NCBI GenBank assembly: GCA_051362555.1
Contig: CM120642.1
Location: 24,056,001 to 24,120,000 of the forward strand
DNA length: 64,000 nucleotides
Direction: 5' to 3'
Origin: Lingula anatina
Taxonomy: Eukaryota > Animalia > Brachiopoda
Part shown: one piece after another, positions 25,318-63,448 of the stretch
Numbering within the stretch: the first letter of the stretch is position 1
Layout of the letters: each line of letters begins with the position of its first letter
Made by a program: the position numbers and the translations under genes
The notes under the pieces: generated by a model
What the model saw: only the letters and a program-made list of their open reading frames with translations
Databases searched by the model: none
Told to the model about the DNA's origin: nothing

Positions 25318-25519
25318 GGGTGCTTTCCCAGAGATTTAGATCGATCTAACTCCCTGGGGGTTCAGGCTAAATTGCAGTCAGCCGAGCGGACACCATAGTT
25401 AATTACCCCCTTACAGCTTTTAGTAGGCGGGACAGACGCTTAAGCCGGCCAAGCTGACAGTTATCTAGTGAGACTCCCCACAGGGATAGATCGATCTAAA
25501 AATCTATGGAAATGGGGTG
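25318..25519 (+). mobile_element. PIF/Harbinger-type MITE, copy 1
   Basis: Imperfect TIRs ttcccagagatttagatcgatc / gatcgatctaaaaatctatggaaa flanked by TAA...TAA; closely related copies at 29475 and 62209. Confidence 0.75.
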
Positions 25520-39447: not shown

Positions 39448-42400
39448 ATGGCGAAAGTATCTGCGTGTTTCTTGATTTCGTTGGCATTTGTTGCCATTCC
39501 CCGTGTTTTAGGAAGGTAGGTATTAGTAGAGACAACCCAAATTTCTTATAGCTGTAGTGAATAGAAGTGTGGTGTGTTACTTCAAGGCCTGTTTTGGGAT
39601 TTAGAAGCTACCATTTCGTCTGCGTTATAAGGTGATTACATTTCTACGACGCTGTGGCAGTAAGATTTGCCACGGAATTCCAATTTTATCAGTTGGGAGA
39701 CAGGTGTTACAATTCTCATTCTATAGTAAACAGTGATAGCTTTGGTGCCTTCCCTGTACTTGTGTATCTCGCATACAAGATAGGTCTACTGTTCGCCGAC
39801 TTATATCATTAGCAAATTCTGTAATTAATTGAGCAATTAATTTACTGGATAATCTCTCCAAACTACTGCTTTACCACACGTTTTTCGTTACCTGTACGTT
39901 AACAACGTGCGTTTATTTCCTTAATTTTACATTTGTAGTCAAGGGAGAACAATGCATTTCTGGTATTCATATTTAACGAAGCTTATATATTATGTAACTA
40001 CTTAGACAGCAAAGTCAACGGAAAACCTTATTGTTCGGTCAAATTTAGAGACACACACAGAGCGTTAGATTCATTTAGAAATCGAGATTGGGTTTATAGA
40101 TTATAATATTCTCCGTACGGTTTTTGGATAGGGCTTCACTTGGTGAAAAGGAGAAAATTCCGGTATTTTCCATGGATATTTATTTTGCTTATTAAAAGAA
40201 ATAAGCATGTCATTTAGGTTAAGTATGACCAGTTAAGTATTTTTTCTAATTCAGCTCGGAGCCTATATTCGAGGACCCGGATGAGCAGTTCAGGGTGTGC
40301 GCCAACCCCGCGGAGTACGACGGCGTGGAAGCGTTCGGCTCAGACTTGTGCGGCAACATGTGTTGGTGTGGGAAGGACGAAGAAGGACGCGTGGAACTCA
40401 CCTGTACAAATCACCCATGCGAAGGTGATTTTCATAAAAAGTCTAACCCATAATTATTTTAACCCATCCCCATCCCACCCCACACGACACACGCGACCAC
40501 ACACACACACACACACACACGCACACACATACTTGTCTATGTGTACCAACCGAGGACATCAGCACAACACCATACAACCGAGGACATCTTATTCCTTGGT
40601 TAAATCAAAATAAAAACATTCAATTTAGGGTAAAATCTATTCGAGTATGAATGTTATAAATTAATTTTTTATAAAAACTAATTTTTTGCTGACAAGAATT
40701 TTACATTCTAACCGAGGACACACACGGACACACACACGGACAGACACTACACATTACAACCGAGGACATGCATGCATCTACATGTAATAATGATTGTACT
40801 TTTAATGCAAAGCAAATTTTATATAGCGTTACTTTGCAGCAATTCACATTTTTATGAAATTCTTTCATATTTAAGGTAAATTCCAAAATAACACCAGAGG
40901 TGATGATTAAATGAACAGTTATACAATATTTAATGCTGGGCTTTGCCACTTTTTTAGAATTGAAGATTATGAGATAAAACATCAATTAATTTAGGAAAAG
41001 AAAGGATACTGATGAAATAAAATAAAAGACCAAAGAAATTCGTTTTCAAACATTTTATTTTCATAATGCTTATTTTCTATTTAGCACTCTTTTATTATCA
41101 TGAATTTTGTATTTTGATAACACAAAGTGTCGTCCATTGGATACAGACTTGAACAGTACACAATTTTACAATTGAGGACATCATGCCAGCAGCACCCAAA
41201 ATTGTGCTTTCTTCCAATTTGATGCAATATTATATAATGCGTAACAGCATAATGATCATCAATTTTTTATAATAAAATATTAGTATCATGAATATTCAGA
41301 AAATGTGACTAGCAAAGGTTTTCAGGTTCATGGAACTCCAAAGTCATACTTTGAAAATGCTAAATGTATACAAGAGAGCACTGTACTGAAATGGGTTTCT
41401 TTCCATTTTTAACTTTTTTTACATAAAATAATACAGTTTACTGCCATTTCACATGATCAACTAAGAAAATTGTTGAGATGGCAAAAATATCAATATAACA
41501 AGTTTAAATGTCCAATTTCCTCCATTCCGAACATTGTGAATGATTGAATCTGACAAACTACAATGATACGAGTTCATTTCCATTTTGGCACTTTTTTTAC
41601 ACAATACAAGATAACAGGTTTACCACCATTTTTATATAATCAACTAGCAATATTGTCAAGACGCAGAAATTGTCAAACAACCCATTTTACATATCTAGTA
41701 AATTCAATAATGAGACTGTTTACATGCCTGACAATCAAATCTGAGGAAAACCACTTATATACAAATAAAAGCTGAAGTCCCTCAAAACTCAACCAATCAA
41801 TCTTATTTTTAAATTTGATTTGTATATAGATAACATTGATCACTCTTGTGAGTTTAATGACAACAGGCCTATCCGTTCTCCCTGAAATGTGCTTACAGTG
41901 TTACTAATATGCTTTTACTAATAATCATCAGTTCTGTGAGTTTCATGAAAACATGCTTTAAGTTATTGGTTCTCCCTGAAATGTGCTTACAGTGTTACAT
42001 ATATGCTGAAAAAAAAAAAAAAAAAAAAAAAAAACAGCATAATATTTGAAAGAAAAGGGCCTGGTCTTGCTGATTTTCAATCTTGACCATTCTTTTACTA
42101 ATAATCATCAGTTCTGTGAGTTTCATGAAAACAGGCTTATTGGTTCTCCTTGAAATATGTTAACAGTGTTGCATGTACACTGAAAAAAGGAGAAAAAATG
42201 CAAAACTTTTGAAAATAATCACCCCATTTCCTCCATTTGGAGACACTGTATTACACAGTACATGATAACATGTTTACCGTCATATTTATATAATCAACTA
42301 GCAATGTTGTAAAGATGCAGACAATTTCAGAGAAACACTAACATATTTACATATCTAGTTAATTCAATAACGAAACTGTCAACATGCCTGACAATCAAAT

Positions 42401-44118
42401 CTGAGGAAAACCACTTATATACAAATAAAAGCTGAAGTCCCTCAGAACTCAACCAATCTATCTTATTTTTAAATTTGATTTGTATATAGATAACATTGAT
42501 CACTCTTGTGAGTTTAATGACAACAGGCCTATCGGTTCTCCCTGAAATGTGCTTACAGTGTTACTTATATGCTGAAAAAAACAGCATAAAATTTGAAAGA
42601 AAAGGGCCTGGTCATGCTGATTTTCAATGTTGACCATTCTTTTACTAATAATCATCAGTTCTGTGAGTTTCATGAAAACAGGCTTATTGGTTCTCCTTGA
42701 AATGTGCTTACAGTGTTACATATATGCTGAAAAAAAAACAGCATAACATTTGAAAGAAAAGGGCCTGGTCATGCTGATTTTCAATCTTGGTCATTCTTTT
42801 TAATTTACTAATAATCATCAGTTCTCTGAGTTTCATGAAAACAGGCCTATTGGTTCTCCTTGAAGTGTGTTTACAGTGTTGCATGTACACTGAAAAAAGG
42901 AGAAAAAAAATGCAAAACTTTTGAAAATAATCACCCCATTTCCTCCATTTTGAGACACTGTATTACACAGTACATGATAACATGTTTACCGTCATATTTA
43001 TTTAATCAACTAGCAATGTTGTAAAGATGCAGAAAATTTCAGACAAACACTAACATATTTACATATCTAGTTAGTTCAATAACGAAACTGTCAACATGCC
43101 TGACAATCAAATCTGAGGAAAACCACTTATATACAAATAAAAGCTGAAGTCCCTCAAAACTCAACCAATCAATCTTATTTTTAAACTTGATTTGTATATA
43201 GATAACATTGATTACTCCTGTGAGTTTCATGAAAACAGGCTTATTGGTTCTCCCTGAAATGTGCTTACAGTGTTACTTATATGCTGAAAAAAAAAAACAG
43301 CATAACATTTGAAAGAAAAGGGCCTGGTCATGCTGATTTTCAATCTTGACCTCTCTTTTACTTATAATCATCAGTTCTGTGAGTTTTATGAAAAGCCTAC
43401 TCTGAAGTATCGAATAAAAGTACTGATGGAATAAAAGTACTGGGTGGAAAAAATCTCAAAATTTAATAAAAGTACTGATGGAATAAAAGTACTGGATGGA
43501 AAAAATCTCGAAATTTAATAAAAGTACTGGGTGGAAAAAACCTTTACACCGCTCCCCCCCCCCCCCCCCCAAAAAAAAAAAAAATGAAATAAATAAATAA
43601 AAGTAAAGAAGAAGAAGAGAAAGAAACAAGGCAGCAAAGCTGTCAAATGTACAGACAAAAACCAGAAAATAAAAACGCAGGAAATAGGATACTGTCAATT
43701 CTGATGAACTAATGTATTATGCTAACTGTAAATGCATAGCCAAAATCAAATTCTTATTCTGCATAACATTGGATTAGGATGAAAGTAAAATGTGTATCAA
43801 GCATTAGACTAAGTTCCCATACCTAGATCAATCTAACAGGATCAATCCAACTCCAAGGGGTTTCTCACTAAATTGCTTTCAGTTTGAGAGTCTTAGGATT
43901 CTGGCATGCCAGTTTCAGTAGGCGTGACAGACAACTAAGCCACTTACATTGATTGCAATTTAGCGAGAATTCCCATGGAGATAGATCGATCCACAGTTAG
44001 CGTGATAGGGTCTGGAAATAGTCCCTAAGGTGTCAGGCTGATAAGAGTTAAACTTTGGAAATGCCAGAATGAGGTACAGTGAAAATTAAACACAAAAAAA
44101 AATTGCTTAAACTCATTA

Positions 44119-44192
<74 letters not shown>

Positions 44193-47100
44193 TTATTATT
44201 ATTATTATTTTTTTTTTTTTTTGCTGTATGTCAATCCTAAGAATCATTCTTGTAACTTAACAAAATACAGAAAATGTTACAAAGTAAGAGTACAGGGCTC
44301 CTGGCAGATGGGAGTGATAAGTCACGACTTGAAAATGCCAGTATAGCACTCTATAAACCTGCATTGCCTCCAAAACAGAAAACAATCACACTGGTTTTCA
44401 AACACAAGCTGCACTTCTGTCTTATGAAACTTTTCAGTAAGTTTCAGTATCGTAAGTAACATGGTTTTCCCTTAACCGCTATCCTGGCAGCAGTGTCCAA
44501 AATAGGGTTTTCTTCAACTTTCATGCAATAAACCATAATACTTAACAGCATAATGACCATCAAATTTTTTATAAAAAAATAAAAGTATCATGAATATTCA
44601 GAAAATGTGATTTGGGAAGGTCTTCAAGGCCATGGAAGTTCAGAGTCACACTTTCAAAATGCCAAAATGTAAACAAGAGATAACTGTACTGAAATGATTT
44701 TCTTTCCATTTTCAACACCTTTTTTAAAACAAAATGATCAATAAACTGTCATTTTTAAATGTTCAACTAGGAAAATTGTTGACATAGGAAAACTATCAAT
44801 AGAACAATTTTCAATGTCCAATTTGCTCCATTTGCAGATGCTGAACATAGTGAATGATTAAATCTGACAAACTGCAATGATGAGTTCCTTTCCATTTATG
44901 ATACTTTATTACACAATGCACAAAATTATAACAGGTTTACCGTCATTTTTATATAATCAACAATATTGTTAAGAAGCAGAAAATGTCAAAACAACACTTT
45001 TACATATCTTATTAGTTCCATAATGAGACTGTTAACATGTCTAAGAATTAAATCTGAAGAAATAACAATTATATACATAAATACAGAAAATGCACAGCAC
45101 TTCTGGTGGATGGGAGTAAAAAATCACATCTTGAAGATGCTAGTGTTTGAAAAATAATTTTAAAAAAATTAAAAAAAAAAAAACGTAAAAAATTCCAATA
45201 AAGCTGCTATTCAAACTTTTAATCTAGCTGTATTAACTTGATATTAATAACCCCACCAAGTTTGAGAAAAATAAAGCACTGTTATTCATCTATAGCATGA
45301 TGGCATAACACATTCTTTTTGTTGTAAATTTATTTGCAATGTTTAACACCATTTATCTGCACAATTATCACCAAATCCTAATTTTGTGACACAGTTAAGA
45401 GAGCTAAACCTATGGGACTTTACAGGGAAATCTCAAGGAGTGTTTTATGTAATCTCATTTAATGGCCAATTGAAAATTAATGAGTAGGCAAGTGACTTTA
45501 TAGACCTTAATTTAATTAGTGATCACCCAAGGGACAATTTTATAGACTGCCATCCATACAGTACCATCATATAGCACAAAGGTGTTGCATACATGCTGAA
45601 AAAAGTGAAAAACAGCATTACTTCCCTAAAAATGACCCAATCACGCTGATTTTCAAACTTGACCTGTGTATTATGAATATTCATCAGTTCTGTACGTTTG
45701 AAACCAAAAGGTAAAATGGTTTTCCACTTATCGTGTTATCGGTGCTGCATATATGCTGAAAAAAGTGAAAAAACAGCATAAATTCCCTATAAGTGACCCG
45801 ATCATGCTGATTTTCGAACTTGACCTGCGTATTACTAACATTCATCAGTTCTGTAAGTTTCAAGCCAAAAGAAAAAACAGTTTTCCACTTATCGTGTTAT
45901 CGGTAAAAGTGCACGGCGACGACGGCGACAGCGACGGCGACGACAGACGCAGATGACGGCTATATGTACAGACACATCTGTGTCTGTACATAAAAAGCTA
46001 GCTATTGATCATTGTAAAAAAAAAAAAAAATTCACCAGGTAAAATTCACTCAGTATTAAAATTTATCTTAAAAACGGGATGAGTTAAATTTCATAATTGT
46101 CAGGGGCCGAAGACCCAGATATATCGCACCTAAGCCGCCTCCGAGAGCCATACGGTTCATACTAGTAAATTTATTCTCAGATATAAGGTTCGTTTTGCAT
46201 ACCTGTAAACTCCTAAGGGTTTATCTTACATAGAAATGTGATTTAACATCGTTTAAATCATAAATCGGCATGAAATAATTGACGTTTGAAAACAGACACA
46301 ACTTCTTTGCTGCACTTGAAATGACCTCCTTAGCTATAAATATGATCCTATCACCTTGCGACATTGCATCATTCGATCGATATACATGAGTAGTTGTCAC
46401 TGCTGAAGGGAAAGCACGTCTATTTATAGAAACTGAAATCAGGTGACGCATGTACTGTTGTGTTCAGAGAGCGACTTCCGCTTGACCTACTTTCCAGTGC
46501 TGTTTGTGGAACAGTCGGTAATGAGTTGAGATTTCGATTTTCTTCTCATTATACTTCAATTTAAGAAAATAAAAAGCGTGACTTGTACTTGTGTAATTTC
46601 CCACCGGTACAATAGGTATTTAATAAACATACCGGGTGGAAGATTTTTGAAAAAATTAATAAGCGTAGGCTACTGGGTGAAAATGGAGCGTACCGGCGGG
46701 AAGAAATTTGGAAAATTAATTAACGTACCGGTACGTTTATTTGATACTTCAGAGTAGGAGAGCTTAATTTGATAAAAAAAGACCTTTAGTTTAAAAATAT
46801 GAACTTACTGAATATATAGACATCTGAGATATAACATTAGTTTCAGTTTAGTCTGCCCTTTACAGCACAACCGAGGACGCGGAATTTGGTCCGCCCTTTA
46901 CAGCACAACCGAGGACGCGTGTGTATAGCCCGATTTCAGACAAAAAGTTGGACAGTATTTCTGATACACTCGTGGCGGGAATTTGGCCCGCGCTATACAG
47001 CATAACCGAGGACTGGCTCAGAATAGCGTCAAATTTCACCACCTAACTTGAAATGGGCCCCTTTATGCATTCCACTGCTTATGTCAACCGAGGACGTCCT

Positions 47101-48432
47101 CGGTTGGAGGTGTGTCCTCGGTTAGTGGGTTTCGGGCGGGTGTGTGTCCTCGGTTAGAATGCGTGCACAAGAGCACACACACACACACTTAAAGTTGCTG
47201 TATTCTATTATTTTTATATATAAAAAACATCTGTTTTTAGAACCAGATACCAGATCCCTTCTCCGAGTCATTGAAATTAAGAATCTGTATTAACCCAGCA
47301 TAGATTATGCACCTAATTGCGAGTAATTTTTCTTTCCGAAAATTCTACAAGAAGTCTACATTTGACACTGTTTTTTTCTTAATGTAATATAAGCAGCCAG
47401 TCATTTCTTTAATTGAGACCATACAAAAACAAAGAACGCAGTAGTATAAATAGTATTAATATTACCATAAGTAATGTAGCATCACTAACAACAAAAAAGC
47501 GTTTTTATCAGTTGCATCCATATTTTTAGCTCTCCAACAACTTTTAATAGTAAAGGGCCGTTGAACTAGAACAAACCAACCACCTGTGTTTATAATGAAA
47601 CATCGGCCCATGTGCCATACCAATCCCAATGTACATGCTGCTTGTTTTCTTTTCATTATATGCTGCAGATCCGTGTCTGCCGGAGACAGCGCGCACTGCC
47701 TGTGTAAACCTTCATATATGTCATGACCTATTAGACGGCATCCGGCATAGTTTTAACTAAAGAAACTACCACCAAATAGCATATGTTAATTTGACAAATA
47801 AGGGTCTGTGTAATGGTGGGGGGGGTATTTGCTACCTTTTAATAAAACCGATTTGCACTTGCTTTTCTGACTGTTTTAATCATGGGTAATGTTTTCTTCT
47901 TTGAGTAGGTCTGACATGAAACTGTTTTAATTTGTCAGTTTACACAAATGATGCACCCGACGACCCAACGATTCCCATTGAAATGTGTTTCATTTATCTT
48001 TTAAGATAAATTAAAATTAGTAAATACGCTTTGTACAATTTACCAATAGATACCAATTTTGTCATTAAAAATGCTACTTCAAATTAATTTGGGTCAACTC
48101 CAGAATAAAAAGGAAAAATGTAAAAGGCAAAAAAAAAAAAGATTAATTCTACTAACAGGTCTTACACGACCAAAACAACGCCCATAATTCAAACTGATTA
48201 ACAATATTTTCTTTCCTCAGGCAAACTGCGGGTCCTGTGCTCAGACCACGGGGTGGCCCACCGCGACCCGTCCAGCTGCGGCCGGTTTTACGTGTGTAAA
48301 TCGATCACGTACAAGCATCTGGTGTACGACCACGTGTTGTTCAGTCAGTGTCCGGAAGGCACCGTCTTCAACGAGAAGAAGAGCATCTGCGACAAGCCAG
48401 TCAACGTAAACGAGTGTTACCAGGAGGAGTAG
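39448..48432 (+). CDS. Secreted pacifastin-like inhibitor domain + CBM14 chitin-binding domain protein (PAC-1)
   Basis: Exon 39448-39515: signal MAKVSACFLISLAFVAIPRVLG, phase 2. Exon 40255-40424: SEPIFEDPDEQFRVCANPAEYDGVEAFGSDLCGNMCWCGKDEEGRVELTCTNHPCE, phase 1. Exon 48221-48432: GKLRVLCSDHGVAHRDPSSCGRFYVC...QCPEGTVFNEKKSICDKPVNVNECYQEE*. Phases are compatible; none of these frames is in the ORF track. Confidence 0.78.
41370..45995 (+). mobile_element. Helentron/HINE-like repeat complex with internal tandem arrays and a 3' hairpin
   Basis: Tandem ~120-bp and ~660-700-bp units in 41730-43390. Block 41170-41760 recurs diverged at 44470-45080. The 3' end has a (GACGGC)n-like microsatellite, then a 14-bp perfect stem tatgtacagacaca-tc-tgtgtctgtacata (45963-45992) and AAAA. 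Confidence 0.6.
43807..44025. mobile_element. Diverged Harbinger-type MITE relative
   Basis: ttcccatacctagatcaatct...cagtaggcgtgacagac...cccatggagatagatcgatc...tctggaaata; related to the 25318 family. Confidence 0.5.
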
Positions 48433-48810
48433 TTCTTATTCATTTAACGGACGATTTGACCCAGATTCTGATGATGTCACCATTATGATTTAATATGACT
48501 GATTTCATATGATACTTGTTTTTATTGATAAAGTACAAATTAAATGAAAATGGGGAAAAGCGTGACGCTCGTGATACTACTGATGACGTACTAGTAGATG
48601 CTTTGCTGCCTCATCATTGCTCAATATTCAAGTATATACAACAAATGAAAGCCCCTTTTGATAATTGAATTGGCCGCTTAAAATATTTGAATGTTATTTA
48701 TTGATGATATCATTACGGAGTGATCAGCATAAAGTTTGTTGCATTACTACAACTACTAATGAGTTTGATTTGAAATTTGAAATTGAAATTGTTAAAAGTA
48801 CTTTATATTG

Positions 48811-48846
<36 letters not shown>

Positions 48847-50037
48847 GTTATGTAGATTTGGCTTCTGCCTATGATCGAACAATAAATTTTTTATCATGAT
48901 TTATTAGTTCAGCTTAGATGTTAGACAGGATAATAGTGCTCGCAATGAGGGTAAAATGTCTATCCATTCAGTTAATTGCGGATGTAATCAACATTTGTAA
49001 CTAAGTCTTTTTGCGCGCGTGTGTATGCAGTGGCGGATATGGGGGGGGGGGGAACAGACCCCCCCTTCGATTTCTGAAAAAAAACCACACCAATGGTTTC
49101 CTCTTGAAATTAGAATTTTGACTAGTTGAATCATAGTTCTAAACCTTACCAAATGGCACCGTTCGCCCTCTAAATTACCAAAATCTACAGTTTACAAAAT
49201 AAAGCAATTACAAAATTACTTGAACAGCTTCTCGCAGAAGGTTCAGAAGATTCGTATTCAGTTGCAAATACAACCACTCTTATCTCTCTTGATAATATAG
49301 AGCATCTGCAAAAAAAAAGGCGTCTCATCTGACAGATGTGTCTGTCGTGCCTGTTTGACGTTAAAACGGCTCCAATGTAAAAGAAAAAAAAGAAAGGAGA
49401 AGTTCTTATTATGTATAACACTTTTTGTCTGCAGAAGTACTAGTAATAGCAATTCTAGTTTCATAATGTAACTTCGTCATTTAAAGGCGGAGCTGATTTT
49501 CTTTATAGTATTCCATACACAACTTTTCCTCTTAGAGCGCTGTTTGCTTTACCGACAGTGTAAATACCCACTTACACGCGTATTGCCCGATAAAATTCAA
49601 ATCTACATGTTTAATTTGCTCTCAAGTTGGCAAGCTTAACAAATAAAATGATGGATTATCTTTCCTACAATCTATCCTTAAAAACGCTATCTTCAAGAAA
49701 GGTCGTAAATATTTCAGATTCGACAGGAGTGGAATATTAAATGCGCAAAAGAGTTGAGTATTCCGATAAAAGATATAAATCACTTTATTTTTAACTTTCG
49801 ATGAAAAGACTGCTTGATTAGGCACATAATTAATATGATCACACTTTTCAAAGAACAGGAAACCTTGTTCTCTGAGCTCTGAAAATTGACGTCGCATAAT
49901 TACGCGCCTCAAAAACAGCACTTCCTTCAAAACTTTAAGCTCTGCACTGATAGAGAATTTGACTTCATCGACAAAGTATCAGGACGTAACTTTCATCTTA
50001 TCCCAACTTCACTGAGATCTAAAATAACTCAGACAAA

Positions 50038-50792
50038 ATGGGAGAGAAGTATTTCGCTTACGTTTTGGTCGTCTGCGTTGCTGCATTGGGGATGGCAGTG
50101 CCTTTGCCAGACGAAAAACTCCCCGTGGTTGAAGAGATAAAGAAGTTCTGCGCAGAGCATGAGGAGAATACACCGTTTATGTACGCTTGTAATCGTTGTT
50201 GGTGTGGCGCCCCAAACCAACCGCCGGCGTGTACTAAAAAGGGTTGTGTCAAAGGTACGAGTTGAGCAATGGCCAATATTCTTCATTGAATATTATTTTA
50301 GACTAAGTTCCTATTTTTATTTTAGCTTTAGCATTAAACTGAGTAATCTTTCAATGAGTGTGGTCAGCTAAGATGGCTAAATACTGTTTTTTCGTGTATT
50401 ACCCTCAATTCTATATCCATTCTGGAATATATATTTTAATAGATCTACGCTTTTCAAATCACAAATTTTTTTAAAAGACAAACTTCAAATCAAGACAGAT
50501 ATTTGAAAATATTTCCGTCTGAAGAAAATTATTATTTAACTCATTATATTGCGAATTTCGGGTACAAAGATCACTATTTTAATTACATTTTTTTTATATA
50601 GAGTGGAAATGTTTTATCAGATGGTTTTTCAAAATTCGTTATTTGAGATGAGTTTTTAATTAATTTCCAGTGGACTGCGGCTCCCACGATCCATACAAGA
50701 CATGGGAGGCTGATGGCGAAGAATGTAGCTGTCAGTTCTTAGCCAACAAGGCTGGGTGGGAAGTTTTTGGTCCCGTCTGCAAGAAACCATGA
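50038..50792 (+). CDS. Secreted pacifastin-like serine protease inhibitor + 4-Cys C-terminal domain (PAC-2, putative P1 Lys)
   Basis: Exon 50038-50254: signal peptide then C-x12-CNRCWC-x8-CTKKGC. Exon 50671-50792: VDCGSHDPYKTWEADGEECSCQFLANKAGWEVFGPVCKKP*. Phase-1 GT/AG intron. Confidence 0.88.
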
Positions 50793-52672
50793 GCAAAATG
50801 AGAAAATTACTACTCCACTTGCTGCTGCACTACGCTTGGTTTAATCCGTTGTAACACTGCTTGCTGACTTGATTAAAACTCTTAAAATGTTGCAATTCTG
50901 ACCATAACATAATTGATGTCTTTATCGTCAAAACTGCCTTCCGAGGAATTGTGAATAGTGATGAAAATAGATGATTAAGAAAATAAACTTGAATTAATGA
51001 GGGCCAAAAATGAAGAGGGGAGCTTTTTTTTTCAAAAAAGGGAGGGTTGGATCTGCCTAGGTACTAAAAATAAATGAACATACATACACTTTTGTTCATT
51101 TATATTTTATATAGCATCGGTTAACATAAAGTACATAAAAGCATGGAAGTTTTGAAAATTTTATTCATAAGTAAAGTAACATTAAGGAAAATATCATAAA
51201 TCATATTGAAAGTATATTAGGTCTTTTTCATACAGAAATCAATGTAATACCGATAAAAAGATTCAATTGGTTCCATAAGTATCACAAATGCCACACTATT
51301 GAGACATTTCCTTTATTACTAATCTATTTCTAATGGACTATTTCAAATTGCAAATTCAAATTCAAGCTTTGCGTGAATAAAATCTGCTATTCTATTTTGT
51401 CATATTGTTTTTACACAAGCTATGAAACTCGTGATTCAAACGAGTGTTAAGTTCACATTAAATTTCTAAAGATTGTGTATTGATATAATAAGTTCACATT
51501 TAATTTCTAAAGATTGTGTATTGATATAATAAATATGCAGAGATTCTGCAGTCGCTTCCAAACAGAACAACCCAACGGAAGGTGGCTCGCACCGGAGTTA
51601 ATAGTCTTTAAAATTCCTCCTCCCACTATACCTGATAGACCAATCACAATTTGCAGAAGCATGGGTCACGTGAAATACCTGTAAGACTCCAGCAGATATC
51701 GCGATTTCCCTAGAAAGAAACACAGTCACACAGGTATAGGTATAAGGTTAAAAAAAAGTGCAAAAACCCGTACTCTTTTTAATAGTTTTCTGAGAAAATC
51801 AATTCTGTAGCACAATAATATTATATTAATATATTTATTTCGAGTCTAAAATCCATAAAATGTTCAATAGACTGTACAACATAAAATACAAAGAAGTTTA
51901 TAGATTAAAGGGTTAAGATATATATTATATAAATCAGAGCTAGACTAAATAGTAATAAACAGTAATTAAAAGTAAAAAATCCAAGGTTTCTTTAATGTAA
52001 AATTTAAAATTCATGAATAAAATGTCTTTAAAATGTGAGTTTTCAATTCCGTTTTAAAAGATTCTTGTGTTTCTATTCGTCTAATAAAAATTGGTAACGT
52101 ATTCCACTCTACTGGTGCGGCTACACAAAATGTTAAACTGTTAACACAAGCGAAATATCATTACTATCCTGGCCAGTGTATGTTTACCCGAGATGAAAAA
52201 AAGAGGGAAAAGCACAAGTATATGATGGCCAGATTTATAATTACATTTGTTATGAAAAGTTAAAAAAATTAAATGTTTCATTGTAACCACTGTGCTGTAC
52301 AACACGAGTTACATCAATAAGTAAACAGGGATATTGAAATGGTAAAGAACTAAAAAATGGATTAGCAAAAACAAGTTTATGAATAACACAAATTGAACCT
52401 GTGAAATTTGCGTGCCAGTTATACAGTGTGAAATGTTAATATGTTTTTTTTTTCTATTTAATATTTATTATCAATTTTTATTAGTTGTTTTCCTTACTAT
52501 TCATTTACATAAAACATTACCTGAGGTAGTCGTAGCAGTAATACGTACATGTACATAGCGTGGGGGTAAACATTAAGCAGTACAACATACACAATTTACA
52601 TTACAAGTTGTTCACATTACCGGGGAGATAGCACGCTTTCCACTGACCTAAATACTTTATCTTAAAGGTAAA

Positions 52673-53877
52673 ATGGCGAGCAAACTAGGCCTTTTGTTGT
52701 TTCTTGCGGTGTGTGTCAACGTGACATTTTCGGCAGACGACATAGTGAAAGATCCACGCGCGTTCTGCCAGAAATCGCCGTCGAGCTCTCCGTTTCGTTA
52801 TGCCTGTAACACATGCTGGTGCTCCGAAGATGGCAGCTATTTCTGTACTGAAATGGGATGCCTGAAAGGTCAGTACACATAAAGTGCCCGACATTCCACA
52901 GACTTAGCCAGAGGCGGATTTAGAGGGGGGCCAGGGGGGTCATGCCCCCCCCTCCCCCCCCCCCCCCCCCATTAGGTTTCTGAAAATAAAATCACACTAA
53001 TATTCCTCTTGGAATTAGAATCTTGACCATCTGATTCATAGTATTAAACCGTACCAAACCGTTCGCACCGTTCGCACCCGAACCCTACGTCAACCGGAAG
53101 GGGGGGGGGGGGGGTCGGCGTCGCATCCGCGGACCTCCCCCCTTCAAATGTTCCTGGATCTGCCCCTGCTTACAATATATTTTAAGAACATAATTCATAA
53201 AGAATATTGCAAAGATTGCAATCAAATAACCGTACAGACGTGTACAGTTGCATTATAGTAGGGCCTACTGGATCTACTAAACTACGTTGGTACAATTTGT
53301 TGTAATACAGATGAAACCAGAACATATGAATGTCTTTCTCTTCCATTTTTCGAAACAAGAGCCACGTGTTTTAGTATACAACCATCCTTACATCTGTGCT
53401 TCTATACGCGTGAGTGTGTATACATGGGTTCATAAACTAGGGTGTAATGACTGATTCGATACAAAGGGAGCACAGTGAGCCCCCACCCCTCCCCTGATAA
53501 GACACCAACAAGCATTTTTTTATCCCTCTCTCTTAAAATGTTCTTGTCCACTGTTACATGTACATCACCGAGAGACGCGAGTGCAAAAGATTTTACCCCT
53601 CTGCCCCCTCCCCCCCCCCCCCACACCCCCAACGCACGCGTAGCAATGGATTCGTTTTTACCGTAACTGCGTAGTATGAAAGGCCGACTTGTCAATGCGC
53701 TTGTGTCATACTGTATCGAATATTCCTATGCACTTTATCTTTACCTGTCCCTTCGTTCTAGTGGAGTGCGGGGATCGTCGAGCCGGGGACCACTGGAAAG
53801 AAGGCGACCTGAACTGCACGTGTGCCTACGACCATGATAAAGAAGGGTGGATGGTGTACAAACCAAAGTGCCAGTAA
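52673..53877 (+). CDS. Secreted pacifastin-like inhibitor + 4-Cys C-terminal domain (PAC-3, putative P1 Glu)
   Basis: Exon 52673-52868: signal peptide then C-x12-CNTCWCSEDGSYFCTEMGC, matching the pacifastin consensus. Exon 53762-53877: VECGDRRAGDHWKEGDLNCTCAYDHDKEGWMVYKPKCQ*. Confidence 0.9.
52909..53168. mobile_element. GC-rich MITE with CAG[A/G]GGCGGAT-type TIRs (hAT-like); partial copies at ~4315, ~15758, ~49029
   Basis: cagaggcggatttagagggggg ... cctggatctgcccctg; internal gaattagaatcttgac...aaaccgtaccaaa is shared with the 15800 and 49070 regions. Confidence 0.6.
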
Positions 53878-55567
53878 AACATGTGATCTTTAAATAATAT
53901 GAGCACTGGAAAAGTTAACCATATGAAAACTTGCTGCATATTGGACTTACTTGAAGAGACACCTCTTCCGTATTGTAAATAAATAAGTACTGGTATTAGA
54001 AAACAATATTATATTTGGAATTTCGCTGAAAGTCATTCTTGTAGTGTCACCCGGATACTGATACAATTATTCTACCACCTCTGAGGGCAGATACCACAGC
54101 TGCCTCTGTACATTGTGTATACATGTACATGTACATGTACCAAATGAAGTTCATTTTTAGAGGTCATTCATGTATTGTGGTTTGGGAATTAAAAAGCACC
54201 CACTGCTGAAACTTTTTACCGTTGAACTTGTTTTTAAACAATTTAAAAATTGTACTAAATTATATGTCATGAATTGCAGTGTCTAAGCACTAAAAAGTCC
54301 CTCTATTGGAATGATTCGAATGTAATTCCTTTCAAAATTTAAGGTTTATTCGTCCTTTCTATCCTGTCGTCCTATCGTACCTTTCAATCCTAAAAACAGT
54401 CAATCATATATAACAAAAATGCCTTAAGAAAAATGATTCTGGATGAAGAGAAAAACAAACCACACAATATTTCTTTTGCTTCCAGGTGCATCACCTTGAA
54501 AATTTCGTTTTGCATTTGCAAAAGAAACGGCGTACAGGAGAAGAAAAAAACTACATGTACCTGAAAATTTTTGTATACAGCTCATATGTATGTTGAACGT
54601 TTTTAATGCTTTGAATATAATTAACCTTATCTTTAATTGAACGATGCTTTCCATTAAGTTCAAACGTTGAAATTGTTAATTGAATTTTTCTAATTTCATC
54701 AACGTTTGAACTGGAAATTAATTGGACTGAATTATCTCCAATTTAAAGACCGGGTTTTAATTGACGTATTATGATCCCACTAAGACTGAATATACTATAC
54801 TATACTGTATTTGAATATACAGTATAGTGCCTGATAATTTGTCTCAGTTAGTTATACTAGTATCACAACATTCCGAATGGATAATTCAAATTGTTTTTCA
54901 CGTCAAAGCATAATTTCCTTGTCACGTTTCCGCGGCACCACTTTAAAGATCATAAACACGATAATGAAACTAATGAAAACGGGCATTAAATTCACAACCA
55001 CGAGTTTGATAAAGACTGTGGTAATCTCATTCAAACACAAAAGTATATGAAATGTTTAAAACAAAGATGTTCAAAGTTAGTATAGAAGATACGAATAGCA
55101 ATATCGCTCTTGAACCTCTGTGGTATAATAGTAAAAGTTAACATTTGTGCAGCTCAGCGCGGCGTACAACAATAGGTTAACAGAAAAAAATATTGCTTAG
55201 AATTTCAATATGGCTAAGCAAAAACAAGTTTAAGTAGAACACAGACTGAATTTATGACTAATAAGAAAGCATAAGTACAAGTTTACAATGTGAAATGTTA
55301 AAGTGTGCGTCGTCTGTATATTCATAGCCTGTGAATTTTCTTTTCTGTTTTTTTTTTTTTTTTTTTTTTTGGACGAATCGTTTTATCCGTCTAGAATTTT
55401 TTTCTTTTGCGTCCAAGTTGTTATCAAGTGAGAGCAATGTTTACCCTTACTTAATCATTTGCCATGAAAACATTTTGATTTTTTGCGTCAAGCACACACA
55501 GTTACCACACCTAAAAAGGGAGATAACATAGTTTCGTCTGACGTAAAATGTTTATCTAAACTGTTAA

Positions 55568-55714
55568 ATGTCTGACAAACTAGACTTTTTGTTGTTAATT
55601 ATGTTGTGAGTCAACGTGGCATTTTCTGTCGCACATGAGCGCACATGTTTTAGTAACACTCTGAACAGTTGCTGATGTTCCAGATATGGCAGTCACATCT
55701 CTTCTGTTTGGAAG
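55568..55714 (+). pseudogene. Pseudogenised paralogue of PAC-3 exon 1
   Basis: atgtctgacaaactagactttttgttgtt...tgagtcaacgtggcattttct aligns with atggcgagcaaactaggccttttgttgtt...tgtgtcaacgtgacattttcg. It has an in-frame TGA in place of TGT, a remnant aacagttgctgatgttcc (NSC*CS) and the same donor aag|gtcagt. The upstream flank is also similar (55213 vs 52361). Confidence 0.75.
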
Positions 55715-55960
55715 GTCAGTAGTAGTTTTTAAGATTTTTAAGACCCGTTATTTTTATTAAGCGTCATGAATTGAAGTCCCTCAGCACTAAAATTTGAATC
55801 TTGATTTAAAATAATTTTCTCTTTTATGAACACAGGCAAACTGCAAGGTTCATTTATCCTATTTACCTATCAATCATTAAAACAAGCAAAAAAGAAAAAT
55901 AAAACAATAATTCTTATGTTTTTCGTTAGTATCATCTCTTTATTATTTTCTGTCCTAACT

Positions 55961-57187
55961 TCAAGCACTCAGACACTCAACATTTTCTGGCCAATCACAA
56001 ATTCCAGTTCCATCGCCGCCATCTTTAAACCACAGGCCTTCTGGGCACGACATCGAAGTGGGAAGCTGGAATCCAGAGCCGCATTCATAAAACTTGCTGC
56101 AGTCATCTGGATCGAGCACTAGGTCTCCTTTTTTCAATTCAGAGCATCTGTTCTCTTTGAAAAAAAACATCACAGATATGAGAACATTAATCATGGAACA
56201 AAAAAATTAATAGGCTACATGTATATGTACAATAGGCGTGATGAATCAAGATATATTAGATGATACCAGCCTTTTCCCCATGTTTTCAACATTAGAATGG
56301 CAGCTGCGTGTCGTTTTTCTTAAATCAAAATTTAAAACCAAAGATTAACGCTGCTACGCATGCGTGGTAACGCGTGTCATTTGCACTACGAAAACTTTGC
56401 CAATTAAATGCCTTAGCCTTAGGAGAAAAAAAAGAGGAAAGAAAGAAAGAAAAATACGGCACATATGTTTCTTCTCATACACAAAATATGATACATCCAA
56501 AATTAATATCAAAGCTGTGAGCAGTAAAAGCTGAACTTTGGGGAAAACGCAGTACATGTATATAGTGCGACCAACTTTTCCTTTAGTTTACGAGGACCCA
56601 TTGTCAGCGTTCAAATTTTCTGGACGGGTTTGAACTGCAGCTACAGAAACATACGTGGTGATGTTGCCCTCCATTCTGCTCGGATGTGTCACACACGGTA
56701 GACAGCTGTACATCATGTAACCACTTTCTTTCAATGAATTTGTTCCACTCCCGTAACTTTAAACTTGTTTCAAATTAAAAAATTAATAATAGTGACGACT
56801 TAGGCTAAGGTATCAATGGATTTGAGTGAGTAGGCCTACTTTTTTTTTTTTTTGAAACAGGCCATACTTTTAAGCAAAAGTGTTATTATCCATCTAGACA
56901 CCCCCCCCCCCCCCCCCCCACGTTGGGCGATGTTTCGGCGTCTTTAGACAGTCGGTGCTGCCCAAGCTTATTGCGGACACATTCGACCTACCTGCGTAGC
57001 AACCAATCAGTGTGCACCCTCCGCCACAGCGACAAGTATTGCACGTATCCTGTCGGAATACCTTCCCTCCATTTTGACAAAACTTATTCACCTCCTGTTG
57101 GCCACGAAGCAGTGGTGGTTTCTTTACCTCGGCAGTCACAAAAACTGCGGCGCACAGGAAAACGCAAACGCTTACTTTGAAATTCAT
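55961..57187 (-). CDS. Secreted pacifastin-like inhibitor + CBM14 chitin-binding domain protein (PAC-4, putative P1 Leu)
   Basis: Exon 57187-56992: MNFKVSVCVFLCAAVFVTA signal, then C-x11-CNTCRCGGGCTLIGC. Exon 56154-55961: ENRCSELKKGDLVLDPDDCSKFYECGSGFQLPTSMSCPEGLWFKDGGDGTGICDWPENVECLSA*. Phase-1 GT/AG intron. Confidence 0.88.
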
Positions 57188-59322
57188 GTTAACAACAAAT
57201 GTTGATGAAGTGTACCCGTCGATTTTCAATGCTTTAAATACCATGATTATTTGCGATAGAATCAAATGTTGAAATTGAAAATTTAATTTTTCGCATTTCA
57301 TCAAAGGCAGTATATGAGCTGAAAATGGACACAGAATTAGAGGGGTAATTACTGCAGCATTTTTAAGTGGCCATTTGAAAACTCCCATTTAAAGCCCGGT
57401 TTTTAAGTGATAGATAATGGCTCCACGTATTGCAAATCAAATGTCCCAACAATACTAGTAGCTTGAAGAAAAGCCCACACTATCAATGTACTTCTTAAAA
57501 ACATGAGAACGCGATGCTATTTTTTTTTCAAGATTGCAAGATTGAAATACATATAGAACCTAAGGTTTGATTAGTTGAAATATACAGTATAGTGCCTATT
57601 ATAGCAGCGTAGAATGAACATAATTATATGATTAATTCCATTCATTTCCTAATTATCTCAACGTGCCGAAAGGACAGTCCAATTTGTCTTACACTATTAC
57701 TCTCGATAGCTTTAATCCTTATGGTTTATGAAGGCTATAAATTTCAAAACTGGTCAATTTTCTCCTGCTTTCAACTTACGAGTAAATACACATTTTTATA
57801 ACTTGAAGTAAAAAAGTCTGTCGCTGAGATATTTGGGAGAGTAAAAATTGTAGGGGCATATGCCCACCATACTTATATACTTGTCACTGCCGAGATTGTG
57901 TTTGCGGTTGAGATTCAAATTGGTTTGAGCGAAACAGCTAACGCAACCCTTGTCACGTCATATTTTGAAATAGAAGTCAAAACAAACTCAAATGGCGAAG
58001 GCTGTCATGTAACGGAATGAAGAATATGTGATGCAACTACCTCATTTTAGTCAGAGTGGAAGGTTTGCCGACTGGAAAACAAAACGTATGCTTCCTATTG
58101 CAACAAACGTCTCTTGTAATACAATTCATATCTGGATGCGTTAATTGGACAATAAGTAGTGTACAGCACTAATATTTCAGCAATTTTTTCTCACCACAAC
58201 AAGGTAGTACTAAACGCTTAACCGTTGCAGTAAGTCGTATCCTACATCTTGTTTATGCTACTAGTGCTCTTATCCCTCGCTGAGAGGTTGTACACTGTAC
58301 TGCAAACTACTTAACAGTTTCAACAAAAGATTGTTTTTTTTCATCCCCTTATGCTTGTCGTGTCATTTGATGTGCGTGTGCATGGCATAACAATTACATC
58401 TTAAAGCTGCACTGAGATGTGCCTATCTTTGTCGCCTCCTTTCCATGAACTAAACATGATATTGACCCGTATGCCACGGTTTTAATATTGGAAATAGTAT
58501 TAAATATCATGCCATTATTCCAACATTCGCTGCGTATTTTATTACTTTCTTAACAGTCGATTTTTCTGTCTCTTCTCCTCCCTTTCTGTCTCGACTACTC
58601 GGGGAGCAAGCTTTGATTGTTGGTTTAGATGAGTATCGAGTACCCTGGAAGTTTTATTAATACCTATATCTCTCACAATGATTGAAAAACACACACACAC
58701 ATATATATAAAGTGTTAACATTTTCCTCTCGGTCAGTCTCGCTGGCGGCACGTGTCTTATAGTACATTAACAGATGCCCCCCCCCCCCCCCAATACCCTA
58801 TCCTGCGCATTTTTCTCAGCCTGCGTCCCTGATAATAACAGTTTTAACTTTAAATTAAGATTGTCTTTCTAAATACAGCATTCTATCAAACGGATTGACT
58901 CTGTAAGGAGCGCTATAACCCCATGTTGCGTTGCAATATTTCAAGTGTGCATTTAGCGAAATAGGACGCTAAGTCAATATACGTTTATCCTTTAAAAATC
59001 ATGAGTCACAAAACGGAACAATGCCGTAAAGGAAAGAAACATTTATTTTGCAAACTCACCATCGACTGTTCCTACATGTAGAATCAGAGCATGCACACGT
59101 ACTGTTTATTCAGCTTAAGCTGTTGCTACAGCAAGTATGTTTGCCTTAAAAATAAAATAAAATTAATCTGAATAGATTAAATTGATCTAAAATTAATTAG
59201 ATAAAATTAATCTGAATAGGAATAGATAATTAATAACAATAGATGAGGACACCACGATAAGGAACTGTTGAGGCAGCAGCCCATTCGAAAACTGTGGACG
59301 CTGTATTTTTCACTCGGTTATT

Positions 59323-59650: not shown

Positions 59651-62208
59651 TAACCTAATATTAATAACTTAATTTATTTTCATTATTTTTAATATTTTCA
59701 GCGACATAATTTGCTGCCGAACGAGTTTCGTCATTAGTACTTACAGCTGGAGTACCGCGACTTTAACAGATTTTTTTCAGTAAAAATAAGTCTGAATAGT
59801 AAATACGGTGACCTCCTTTAGGTAAAAAGCAGTTGTCATTAACATAGGATTTTTGATACATGTCTTGATAAATAAATGGCGAGGAGTATTGATTTGCTGA
59901 AATTATTTGATTAAATTGTGTTAATTGAAGATCGACCGGGAATACAACGTGCATGTGCGTGCGCGTTTGATTGCACATACATGTATCCATGGATTCTTTC
60001 AGTTTCTCTGAGCTTATGCGAGAGTGAGTGTCTGCCTGTCTTTACGTATGTGTTTTCTGAAGACACAAACAACATCTTTTTGTTAGTAACAGTTACACGA
60101 CGCTTAATAATTCAAAACTCAAGATAGAGATTTTAACTTTATCTGCGTAAAAATGTGGAGATGTGAAAAGGGTTTCGGAAAGTGAGATCATAAACAAATA
60201 CACTTGTAAGTGTCTTTTTCCATAATTGAGTGGATTGTCAAGCTGGCAATTCAGTGACGTTCTTCTTTCTTTTGGCCAAGGGTCGGCTGATGCATGTTTT
60301 ATAACACTCAGCAGTAAGACCAGTCTTTTTCAATGTGCATGTAATTGAAAACTGTTAAGTCTATTTATTCTGCCTTGAAAAAGACACACACTCAAATACA
60401 AATCACCCTGGTTGCATGGATGACGAAGCTGAAAGATCTTATTCAGGAAAAAAGGCCTCTATTTACTCTATCAACCCAGCATCGGTTTTTCGTGGAATAG
60501 GAGCATGCGCGAAGGATTGTTTTTTCAACAAAAGCTGTTGCTATGATTGCGTAGGTTAAAAACTAGGTTAAAATGATCGGTAGTGGTCGATTTAGTGGAA
60601 AACATAACTCCACACAATATCCCGCATGCGCAGACCACCTATACAGCCATAAACCTCGGCACGAAAGTAGATTTCATTTTCTTTCTCGGGGACACATAAC
60701 GGTAAGTGTGGGGATGGCCGGTCCATGGCTCTTTTAAATATTAAAAAAAAAAAAGAGGTTCCAAAGTTAGACGGATGCGTGTTTTGCCTATTTTTGTTTT
60801 TATCGTGGGTTGTTGAAGAAAGAAGAGCGCTCACGTTTTTTCGCTAAGTATTGTTGTGTCACACTCATACAGTCGTGTTTACTACCTTTTCCTTCGGTCG
60901 CCTGCTGTACGCATACTTATTTGTGCATGCCAATCCAAAATAATATAAAATGCCTACAAATAACTTTGATATTTACATTAAATTATCGAGGTTCAAACTG
61001 AGGTTAAAATGCACACTGATTAGATTCCCTCTTATTAAATGGAGAATCCCCCCCCCCCCCTCCTTATAACCGGCCAACTAATTACTGGGACTTAGAATGA
61101 GAAAATGAAAACGAACTAAAATATTCGTCAATATACAAACTGGAATTATGCAGCAAAAAAGGACCTCTATATGAGCCAAAAAATTATAATTAATTATTTG
61201 TAACCCCTATACGGAAAATAGTTAATACAAATGTTCTTAACCGTAGATTGTGTAACTGAAAGGTTTTTAATGGATGTGATTAATGTATATTAATGATTTG
61301 AAAATGTTTGTGACTTGAGATTTCAGTCTTGTCTATGCAGATTTTAAACCCGGCTGCAGTATATATGCACCAAACTCTTAGTATTTCCTTGGAGGACTCT
61401 GGGGACCTGTTATGTAATTATGACGTAACAATATATAATCATTTTGCCAATGGGGAATTATGACGTGACCAACAGTGATTACGTAACATTACATAATATT
61501 ATGTTATGTTACATGATGTTATGTAATATTATATAATGTTACGTAATGTTATGTTATATTATATAATATATGACAATTGATATTGAAACATCCAGAAAGT
61601 TCGTTTTGTCCTCTTGCGCGTTCGTTATTATTAACCCCCCAAAAAATAAAGATGGCATCGTACGGTTCAAAGCGTCGCACCACGAGTAAATAAACAAGGG
61701 TTCGCTAACAGTCAGGTGAGACTATTGTAATTTACATAGAGAAAGGTATACAACCCAAATACCTAGAGTATTGTGATGGCGTGTGGTTTGCAAACACTCG
61801 GTAGATTGACTTTGCCTTTTATTCAACTGAATTGCTGAGCTACTTCAGATAAACACAATGTTTATATAAATACGAAATGAACACATACTACGTATTTAGA
61901 ATGGATTATACATAGACAGCTACTTTCAGAGGGTGGAGGGAAAATAAACGTTCTAACAGATTATTCATATTTTGTCTGAACTGGTATTTTGATTGGAATA
62001 GCATATCGGTCACGTGCACCAATATACATTGGATATTGACCTCTGTTTTCATAGAAATGTATAAGCGCCTTGTATCCGGGGTCATTCTCGATAGTATTAT
62101 TATTGTAATTAATCGGGTCACGGAGTTTGCTGAATATTATGTAATATTACGTAATTATGTGTTCATAGAAGCAATAAGGGATCGCTCTGAAACTTGACAG
62201 GTAGCTTA

Positions 62209-62433
62209 GGGTGTATTCCCAGAGATTTAGATCGATCCAGGGATTAAAATTTAGATCGACCTAACTATCTGAGGGCTCAAGCTAAATTGCAGTCAACCGA
62301 GCGCTCACCATAGTTAATTACCCCCTTACAGCTTTCAGTAGGCGGGACAGACGCTTAAGCCGGCTAAGCTGACAGTAATCTAGTGAGACTCCCCACAGGG
62401 ACAGATCGATCTAAAATCTATGGAAATGGGGTC
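62209..62433 (+). mobile_element. PIF/Harbinger-type MITE, copy 3
   Basis: TTA|gggtgtattcccagagatttagatcgatc...gatcgatctaaaatctatggaaatggggtc|TTA; 3-bp TSD. Confidence 0.8.
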
Positions 62434-62444
62434 TTAGAGAAGAT

Positions 62445-63448
62445 ATGGTTCGACAGCTAAGCAACGCAGCTTACTATGGGATTCTTTCTCTCAGAGAAAA
62501 TGGCCAGAGACGGACAGCCATTGCCAGCCAATGCAACATTTATCAGGAACCGGTAGTAAAGTCCTCCAAAGAAATGCTACAACAGGAGCACCTGCTCCAA
62601 TACCTCGACCAGGGTGTCCGCGTATCACACCAAGAAGACAGGATCGCCTTCTCCTTAGAGTGTGCCGTGCTGGTCGTACAAAGACAACCAGTGTCCTCAG
62701 AAAAGAGTGGCAGAATGTCAGTCAAACGCCCGTTTTAAGGTCGCTCGTGAACAAGAGATTACTGCAAGCCGGTTTATTTTGCAACCACTGTTTACAGCAG
62801 GTCATATACAGCAACGTCTGCAGTGGGCTGGGGACCACGTGCGTTTGCAGCCAAAACACTGGAATCACGTCGTTTTCGGTGATGAGGCCAGATACGCAGT
62901 TTTTAGAGTTGACGATCGAAGCCGTGTCCGCCGACGTGTACGAGAGGCATAAAACGATGATTGTGTACTGCCTAGGGTGCAAGCAGGGGGTGATAACGTC
63001 TCTGTTTGGGGAACATTTCATGCCGGTGCCCAGAACCAGTTGGTTTTTCTAGGAGGCAACCCAAACCAGGGTTCCTACAGAGACATTCTACAGCAAACAA
63101 TGCTTCGATTTGTAAGAGTCATCTTCAGGGACAACTTTGTGTACCAAGACGACTGCGCAACCCCACATCGAGCTCGCAGAATCAGTTTTTCTTCTAAACC
63201 AATGGGTTCAGCAACCGCCCTGGCCTGCAAACTCCCCAGATATGAACCCAACTGAAAATCTGTGGGCGGAAGTAACTCACAGAATTAATAGCTATGGTCA
63301 TGCATCGGCCGGTAAATAGTGATGAACTGCGTCAGGCAAATATCACTGGAATAATATCCCCATCCAAACTTTAAAAAACTTGTCACAAGGAATGCCATGT
63401 AGGATGAGGGCGCTGCAAGCGGCTGCTGGAGGTCATACCCGCTATTGA
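62445..63448 (+). mobile_element. Degenerate Tc1/mariner transposase (frameshifted)
   Basis: Fragments in different frames: PRPGCPRITPRRQDRLLLR (HTH linker), WNHVVFGDEARY, VSVWGTF, FVYQDDCATPHRAR, WPANSPDMNPTENLWAE, ...GGHTRY*; these are Tc1 DD34E motifs. Confidence 0.88.

Follow-up and report, generated by a model that had tools for sequence, protein, structure and literature searches.

A stretch of 64,000 nucleotides of the brachiopod Lingula anatina (assembly GCA_051362555.1, contig CM120642.1, 24,056,001-24,120,000 of the forward strand; hereafter the window, in whose numbering positions are given) contains a cluster of four genes, called A, C, D and B in their order along the DNA, in which a pacifastin-like exon is constant and the last exon is exchanged, encoding either a chitin-binding CBM14 domain (A and B) or a four-cysteine module (C and D). 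The genes are predicted to encode secreted proteins of two modules, and at least the product of gene B may inhibit serine proteases on chitin, with the CBM14 domain as its anchor, a reading to which we assign a probability of roughly 0.5. Genes C (112 amino acids) and D (103 amino acids), which sit between the other two, had gone unreported in a preliminary description of this DNA. The exons of the cluster, with the residues flanking the putative reactive bond (P1-P1'), are as follows:

39448-39515, + strand: gene A exon 1, start codon (as in RefSeq XP_013382615.1) and hydrophobic signal-like segment; phase-2 donor
40255-40424, + strand: gene A exon 2, divergent six-cysteine pacifastin-like domain; cysteine spacing 16,3,1,11,4; P1-P1' Asn-His; phase-1 donor
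40425-48220, + strand: gene A intron 2, 7796 nucleotides, GT-AG, phase 1, filled with repeats
48221-48432, + strand: gene A exon 3, CBM14 domain with six cysteines, Lys at the conserved aromatic position; stop codon
50038-50254, + strand: gene C exon 1, signal-like segment and pacifastin-like domain (Pfam 25.7 bits); P1-P1' Lys-Lys; phase-1 donor
50671-50792, + strand: gene C exon 2, four-cysteine module lacking a Pfam match
52673-52868, + strand: gene D exon 1, signal-like segment and canonical pacifastin domain (Pfam 36.6 bits); P1-P1' Glu-Met; phase-1 donor
53762-53877, + strand: gene D exon 2, four-cysteine module related to that of gene C
57187-56992, - strand: gene B exon 1, signal-like segment and pacifastin-like domain; cysteine spacing 11,2,1,3,4; P1-P1' Leu-Ile; phase-1 donor
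56154-55961, - strand: gene B exon 2, CBM14 domain, in which the C-terminal Trp is conserved; stop codon; AATAAA 17 nucleotides downstream

In each gene a signal-like segment and the six-cysteine exon are followed by a phase-1 intron one or two codons past the sixth cysteine and then by the last exon, and the linker between the two domains comprises five to seven residues and contains no dibasic site. Gene A has an open frame of 149 amino acids ending in a stop codon, with GT-AG introns of phase 2 (739 nucleotides) and phase 1 (7796 nucleotides), the former being an additional intron that separates the signal segment from the cysteine domain; gene B has an open frame of 129 amino acids with one GT-AG phase-1 intron of 837 nucleotides. 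The exon-intron models that had been proposed for both genes, with their phase-1 junction ahead of the last exon, are borne out by these features, and so are the proposed signal peptides, as the best 11-residue Kyte-Doolittle mean of the hydrophobic start is 2.9 (A) and 3.2 (B) compared to 0.8 and 1.1 beyond residue 30; since the calls are made by hydropathy, the segments are named signal-like. Loose six-cysteine patterns, which were drawn up with these sequences already known and whose counts therefore show rarity by chance only, occur in the window four times in the pacifastin-like and three times in the CBM14-like form and in none of 200 local shuffles. Because the members of the cluster keep the first module and exchange the last, the cluster probably originated by exon shuffling. 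A and B as recent duplicates were ruled out, as their exons are without nucleotide similarity.

Independent support for the models comes from RefSeq, whose entries are the annotation of another assembly or haplotype. XP_013382615.1 joins the three exons of gene A in the same way and has the same length with three differences (146 of 149 residues identical), XP_013382619.1 corresponds to gene C (108/112 identical) and XP_013382620.1 to gene D (101/103 identical). When 29 candidates were compared with a profile of the four cysteine exons, three matched, all of them Lingula anatina RefSeq proteins named 'uncharacterized' with the lengths of A, C and D. Within the large intron of gene A 48221 is the sole acceptor that passes a filter for phase 1, at least 11 pyrimidines in 14 positions and at least 30 open codons. 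RNA reads were aligned to positions 48100-57400 from four of nine raw runs, 6-30% of each, the runs not being tied to tissue. In runs X7 and X9 gene A exon 3 and about 290 nucleotides of 3' sequence (to about 48720) reach a depth of about 33-49, whereas X4 covers them thinly and X1 not at all; the CBM14 exon of gene A is transcribed. In the bin that spans the acceptor the mean depth is 23.4 in X7 and 31.0 in X9, for which coverage starting at 48221 predicts 21.2 and 28.6 and intron read-through 34.7 and 46.8, so that a start at the acceptor fits better than coverage through the intron. Among the differences listed between reads and window in the coding part of exon 3 (the table holds 173 further rows) seven of eight are synonymous, suggesting a conserved reading frame, and the fixed differences point to another population or a close paralogue.

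Intron 2 of gene A contains a 22-nucleotide perfect inverted repeat (40704-40725 and 47140-47161). Between the two arms lie about 6.4 kb of nested direct repeats with units of about 160, 245-300 and 700 nucleotides (40700-47160). The unit looks like a non-autonomous mobile element, and given the repeats and the bracketing inverted repeat the great length of the intron is likely to be due to insertion of such an element.

Are the six-cysteine domains pacifastins? All four contain the six cysteines in order and the reactive loop Cys5-Thr-P1-P1'-x-Cys6, that is Cys5-Thr-x3-Cys6. A profile of the four domains, the signal of which comes mostly from B, C and D, matched 14 entries of the PDB at E values up to 10, and all 14 are pacifastin-type inhibitors (best E 8e-7) with no vWC entry among them; in a similar second profile search pacifastin-type entries made up 16 of the 17 matches, one of them presumably a locust peptide. 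With the B domain alone the top eight of 27 matches were pacifastins, PMP-C being the best (E 0.031), and 16 of the 27 were chance matches to dipeptidase. In Pfam, where the gathering cutoff of PF05375 (Pacifastin_I) is 27.9 bits, D passes with 36.6 bits, followed by C with 25.7 and B with 21.9 bits (E 1.5e-4; 20.4 bits for the exon alone). Gene A gave no PF05375 match, and its exon 2 alone matched nothing in Pfam or the PDB. The published pacifastin signature, C-x9-12-C-N-x-C-x-C-x2-3-G-x3-6-C-T-x3-C (PMC2689174), is fitted by D. A vWC fold, which the preliminary description had named as a finding that would refute its proposal, was not backed by Pfam or the PDB: the six-cysteine domains gave no VWC match in Pfam and no vWC entry in the PDB profile search, FnI_RECK appeared for D exon 1 only and at E 0.23, and A and B carry six cysteines in this exon as opposed to the ten of the vWC pattern. 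Of the pacifastin fold, which has three strands and the disulfides C1-C4, C2-C6 and C3-C5, an AlphaFold model of the cysteine domain of A shows the C3-C5 beta-hairpin at a mean predicted local distance difference test score (pLDDT) of 69. With this model Foldseek returned no match at E 0.001 and VIA-align a best Z of 2.9 among 48161 chains, results that carry little weight for a 56-residue disulfide domain of that pLDDT.

As a group the six-cysteine domains are, by their sequences, pacifastin homologues. A and B are singly the poorest members, and because they miss both cutoff and signature they are called pacifastin-like here and left outside I19, the MEROPS label of the pacifastins (PMC2689174). 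What had been described as a pacifastin-like domain in both genes is upheld by the loop and the group profile, and is weak for A. By the length of the C1-C2 loop, the only feature compared, A with 16 residues fits the 13-20 'ancestral' class and B (11), C (12) and D (12) the short-loop class of a 2026 survey (PMC13388995). The P1-P1' pairs are Asn-His in A, Leu-Ile in B, Lys-Lys in C and Glu-Met in D, the latter two being typical outside arthropods (PMC13388995); an acidic or amide residue at P1 is found in 13% of predicted pacifastins, where its effect is unknown (PMC2689174).

The chitin-binding half is better defined. The six-cysteine CBM14 domains of both genes, as proposed before, score 39.8 bits (A) and 45.9 bits (B) against PF01607, well above the cutoff of 22.1, and that of B matches a chitinase CBM14 domain in the PDB (E 7e-7). 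It retains the Pro-x-Gly-Leu motif and a Trp that aligns with Trp or Tyr of solved chitinase domains at the position of Trp465 in human CHIT1, and mutagenesis of CHIT1 showed that those Pro, Leu and Trp residues weigh most in binding (PMC5459812). The dissociation constant of the CHIT1 domain for chitotriose is about 10 mM (PMC5459812), indicating that binding by a single domain is weak. Chitin occurs in Lingula in the shell, the chaetae and probably the gut peritrophic matrix (PMC4595640). In a comparison set of 512 CBM14 domains, selected by likeness to A, each of the two domains ranks only 330th or 287th against the other, so that they resemble each other no more than they resemble unrelated domains. 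A tree of 63 rows, made up of A, B, the neighbouring gene E and one domain (the best) from each of the leading 60 of 102 proteins, did not group A with B, although the grouping was not rejected (p-AU 0.145). The fusions could thus go back either to an old duplication or to two separate events. The earlier argument that an architecture occurring twice supports the gene models is weakened by this: as A and B are not close duplicates, the recurrence supports them less than RefSeq does.

How could such a protein act? Since the linker offers no dibasic site, the two-domain protein would stay whole and persist uncleaved. By analogy to the family, the loop Cys5-Thr-P1-P1'-x-Cys6 would occupy the active site of S1 proteases as a substrate does, the Leu at P1 of B favoring chymotrypsin-like targets and the Asn of A an unknown target or none. 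A single CBM14 domain would bind chitin weakly and reversibly and could thereby concentrate the inhibitor wherever chitin is exposed. As the site we prefer unmineralised chitin, be it in the gut peritrophic matrix, the cuticle, the chaetae or the walls of microbes, to the mineral shell, and as the role protection or defence, because A, C and D are missing from the shell-matrix set discussed below and the neighbouring genes look recognition- or defence-like. The radula, also suggested before, is excluded because the host is a brachiopod, and brachiopods, to our knowledge, have no radula; a mollusc host with a radula role was accordingly ruled out.

Several observations weigh against a chitin-held inhibitor. 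Neither A nor B reaches the PF05375 cutoff, and both fail the published signature, as does C (PMC2689174). The C4-C5 loop of B is shortened to three Gly, compared to the 6-10 residues that the signature requires, and A has loops of 16 and 11 residues and one Gly inserted ahead of the otherwise invariant Asn that directly follows Cys2 in B, C and D. When each domain was left out of the profile in turn, 4 of 500 cysteine-fixed shuffles reached the score of A (9.4 bits) or B, as compared with 0 of 500 for C and D. In its CBM14 domain A has Lys at the position of CHIT1 Trp465, which is a binding determinant and not a strict family criterion; among 501 CBM14 domains from the matches of A this position is Trp, Tyr or Phe in 395 and Lys in 9. 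Since some CBM14 proteins bind through partly different residues (PMC6128652), A is doubtful as a chitin binder but possible. By its sequence A appears to be a diverged copy in which either activity may be shifted or lost. Transcript and annotation support A, which is degenerate at its two functional sites, and B, with intact sites, lacks this support: the four runs contain essentially no reads from genes B, C and D, and a protein model for B, the best candidate, was not found in the protein collection (lengths 36-2000 searched). Among the joints listed for 48100-57400 no read crosses 40424-48221 or 56992-56154; those listed are poly-C/G artefacts at 53114, 53604-53630 and 56899-56921, where read depth does not reflect expression. 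The tissue assignment derives from gene neighbourhood and absence from a single shell proteome. Finally, word-based protein searches returned Lingula proteins only, and as they brought up no close relative in which the two domains are combined, a function cannot be argued from conservation. When A was compared by phmmer with 1.84 billion representatives, 107 matches were obtained, A itself, 105 CBM14 proteins and one unrelated repeat protein, and among them no second pacifastin-CBM14 protein. PF05375 was found in none of the 106 others (E 1e-3 for 70 of them, E 1e-5 for the other 36), nor did any match the local profile above 5 bits. This search is insensitive for the inhibitor half, since it missed the paralogues C and D.

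The alternative that survives best, though we consider it somewhat unlikely, is that these proteins are non-inhibitory matrix adaptors in which the six-cysteine domain is an FnI/vWC-like bead that ties a partner such as collagen or a growth factor to chitin via CBM14. The deviation of A and B from the inhibitor signature would be explained in this way, and the sister genes C and D join the domain to a four-cysteine module of 37-39 residues with two conserved Trp that has no match in Pfam or the PDB and cannot be aligned with the pacifastin profile; by its cysteine pattern we take it to be FnI/vWC-like, the Atlas leads being weak. Atlas ranks VWC2L/VWC clusters next behind pacifastin for D with scores of 0.80-0.85, and, all its leads lying below 0.9, offers CBM14 clusters for A. 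Furthermore, pacifastin domains outside arthropods often occur in adhesion and biomineral proteins, mostly untested (PMC13388995), and one shell protein of Lottia carries the annotation 'VWC/pacifastin' (PMC4094399). However, the PDB matches of the four-domain profile are exclusively pacifastin inhibitors, and the P2 Thr and exact Cys5-Cys6 spacing are conserved in all four domains with P1-P1' different in each paralogue, which is the usual diversification of inhibitors (PMC2689174). Moreover, each protein has a single copy of the domain and no array.

An inhibitor acting within the chitin-apatite shell, where it would shield the organic scaffold from proteolysis during secretion, appears distinctly improbable. 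The Lingula shell consists of chitin and apatite with a matrix that contains Kunitz-type inhibitors and chitin-binding proteins, and pacifastin domains are found in the hard-part proteome lists of an oyster and the scaly-foot snail (PMC13425148 and its supplement). The tyrosinase-like shell protein XP_013382611.1 (PMC13425148), encoded outside the window, has an accession four below that of gene A and may therefore share its scaffold, which is of interest because in crayfish the activation of phenoloxidase is regulated by pacifastin. On the other hand, XP_013382615.1, XP_013382619.1 and XP_013382620.1 are not among the 54 shell-matrix proteins, taken from the same RefSeq set, or in the peptide tables of that study (PMC13425148), which speaks against the host shell matrix named as a possible site in the preliminary description; the word 'pacifastin' has no occurrence in the 2015 Lingula supplement. 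Small disulfide-rich proteins can escape shotgun proteomics, and B would be unidentifiable if outside the searched database.

That part of the fusion is artefactual or a gene in decay, with B silent or a pseudogene and the CBM14 exon of A belonging to another transcript, would agree with the missing reads and database model for B and with the repeat-filled 7.8-kb intron of A for which no junction-spanning reads were obtained, but is highly improbable, as the frame of B is intact with its 12 domain cysteines, canonical splice sites and polyadenylation signal, RefSeq arrived at the three exons of A independently, exon 3 of A carries neither its own start codon nor its own signal segment and differs from the reads mostly at synonymous sites, and C and D are likewise unread in these runs yet have RefSeq models.

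The chitin-held inhibitor proposed here can be compared with several known systems. The locust peptides PMP-C and SGPI-2 (I19, PF05375; PDB 1GL1 and 1KGM) share the six cysteines in order and the Cys5-Thr-x3-Cys6 loop with the Lingula domains, the Cys2-Asn-x-Cys3-x-Cys4 core with B, C and D, and, in PMP-C, the P1 Leu with B. In contrast, they are released from poly-domain precursors and circulate freely, whereas A and B consist of one domain plus CBM14 without a dibasic linker site; the hairpin loop of B is shortened, the loops of A are lengthened and the host is a brachiopod. Similar in design are the 'ancestral' multidomain pacifastin-like proteins (Rodriguez-Aguilar et al., 2026; PMC13388995), which are non-arthropod, uncleaved and joined to a matrix-binding partner; the 16-residue C1-C2 loop of A falls into their 13-20 class, and like the 'cryptic' set of that study A is missed by Pfam. 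The partners named for them are Laminin G, Lustrin, VWC, FnI, Pentraxin, TIL, WAP, Thyroglobulin, Kazal and Kunitz domains, with no chitin-binding partner named in the text, and all 155 short-loop proteins are pacifastin-only, unlike B, C and D with their short loops (11-12) and an accessory domain (PMC13388995). C and D would hence represent a non-arthropod combination, a short-loop pacifastin joined to an accessory domain, that is not reported in the text of that survey.

The CBM14 domains of A and B, above cutoff and with six cysteines, resemble those of the Peritrophin-A/CBM14 proteins (CHIT1, insect chitinases, tachycitin and peritrophins), and the layout of an effector domain with a lone C-terminal CBM14 resembles that of GH18 chitinases; the partner, however, is an inhibitor-like module and not a hydrolase, and A is without the C-terminal aromatic residue. 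In lophotrochozoans CBM14 and inhibitor domains are commonly shuffled. Secreted pacifastin-like matrix domains of lophotrochozoans are known from the mollusc shell proteins Lotgi1|230854 (VWC/pacifastin) and oyster CGI_10028286 (Lustrin and pacifastin), for which no chitin-binding domain is listed, and the Lingula proteins differ also in not being found in the shell proteome (PMC4094399; PMC13425148). The plant Kunitz inhibitor ApKTI likewise inhibits trypsin and binds peritrophic-membrane chitin with one protein, but has an unrelated fold and a single domain and targets the gut of another organism (PMC6930628).

Upstream of the cluster lie two further genes, the second of the alpha-2-macroglobulin/TEP/CD109 type:

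35325-27686, - strand: gene E, 269 amino acids, signal-like segment, CBM14 and C-type lectin; exons 35325-35211, 34492-34286, 28509-28330 and 27993-27686
about 2900-23350, + strand: thioester-protein gene; exons seen at 17719-17958 and 21769-22122

The CBM14 domain of gene E scores 46.4 bits and its exon, with phase-1 introns on both sides, is a candidate mobile module; Lectin_C reaches 18.8 bits on one exon, under the cutoff of 22.6. In the thioester-protein gene the GCGEQ motif is intact, and in Pfam the TED domain scores 68.9 bits and A2M_recep 35.8 bits. Elsewhere in the window a broken Tc1/mariner-like transposase remnant (62438-63255, + strand; Pfam HTH_Tnp_Tc3_2, weak at E 0.021) and, by eye, three copies of an interspersed element of about 200 nucleotides with similar ends (about 25320-25520, 29490-29680 and 62200-62430) were observed.

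In 2009 no pacifastins had been found in molluscs or annelids (PMC2689174). The 2026 survey counts 109 in molluscs, places many non-arthropod domains within multidomain matrix proteins and proposes, from computation, that pacifastins began matrix-tethered and were freed in arthropods (PMC13388995). The words 'chitin', 'CBM', 'Lingula' and 'brachiopod' have no occurrence in its text, and two supplementary files hold no Lingula accession or CBM14 term, the network of Fig. 7 lying outside this check (PMC13388995). A description of a pacifastin-CBM14 fusion was not found in the literature searched, which took in few subscription papers; the earlier claim that the pairing is undescribed stands in this sense, while pacifastin domains in non-arthropod multidomain matrix proteins are published (PMC13388995). 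The fusion is real and seems not to have been described; it recombines two familiar modules in a lineage-restricted way and follows a pattern already proposed for non-arthropod pacifastins. Its ceiling is modest, given familiar modules, common shuffling and no relative found outside Lingula by searches insensitive for the inhibitor half. Tentatively, a pacifastin exon and a CBM14 exon may have been combined in Lingula, perhaps in two independent events, into a minimal serine-protease inhibitor anchored to chitin, beside sister genes that carry another anchor, and these would be the first chitin-tethered pacifastin and the first brachiopod pacifastins described. If so, the cluster would be a compact natural test of non-arthropod pacifastins as matrix-tethered inhibitors guarding a chitin scaffold: with mature proteins of about 110-130 residues that combine one inhibitor-like domain and an anchor with a cheap and well-understood ligand, tethered inhibition would be directly testable, and the sister genes with another anchor would add to this. 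It would extend the range of the family to brachiopods and suggest protease protection of gut lining, cuticle, chaetae or shell scaffold.

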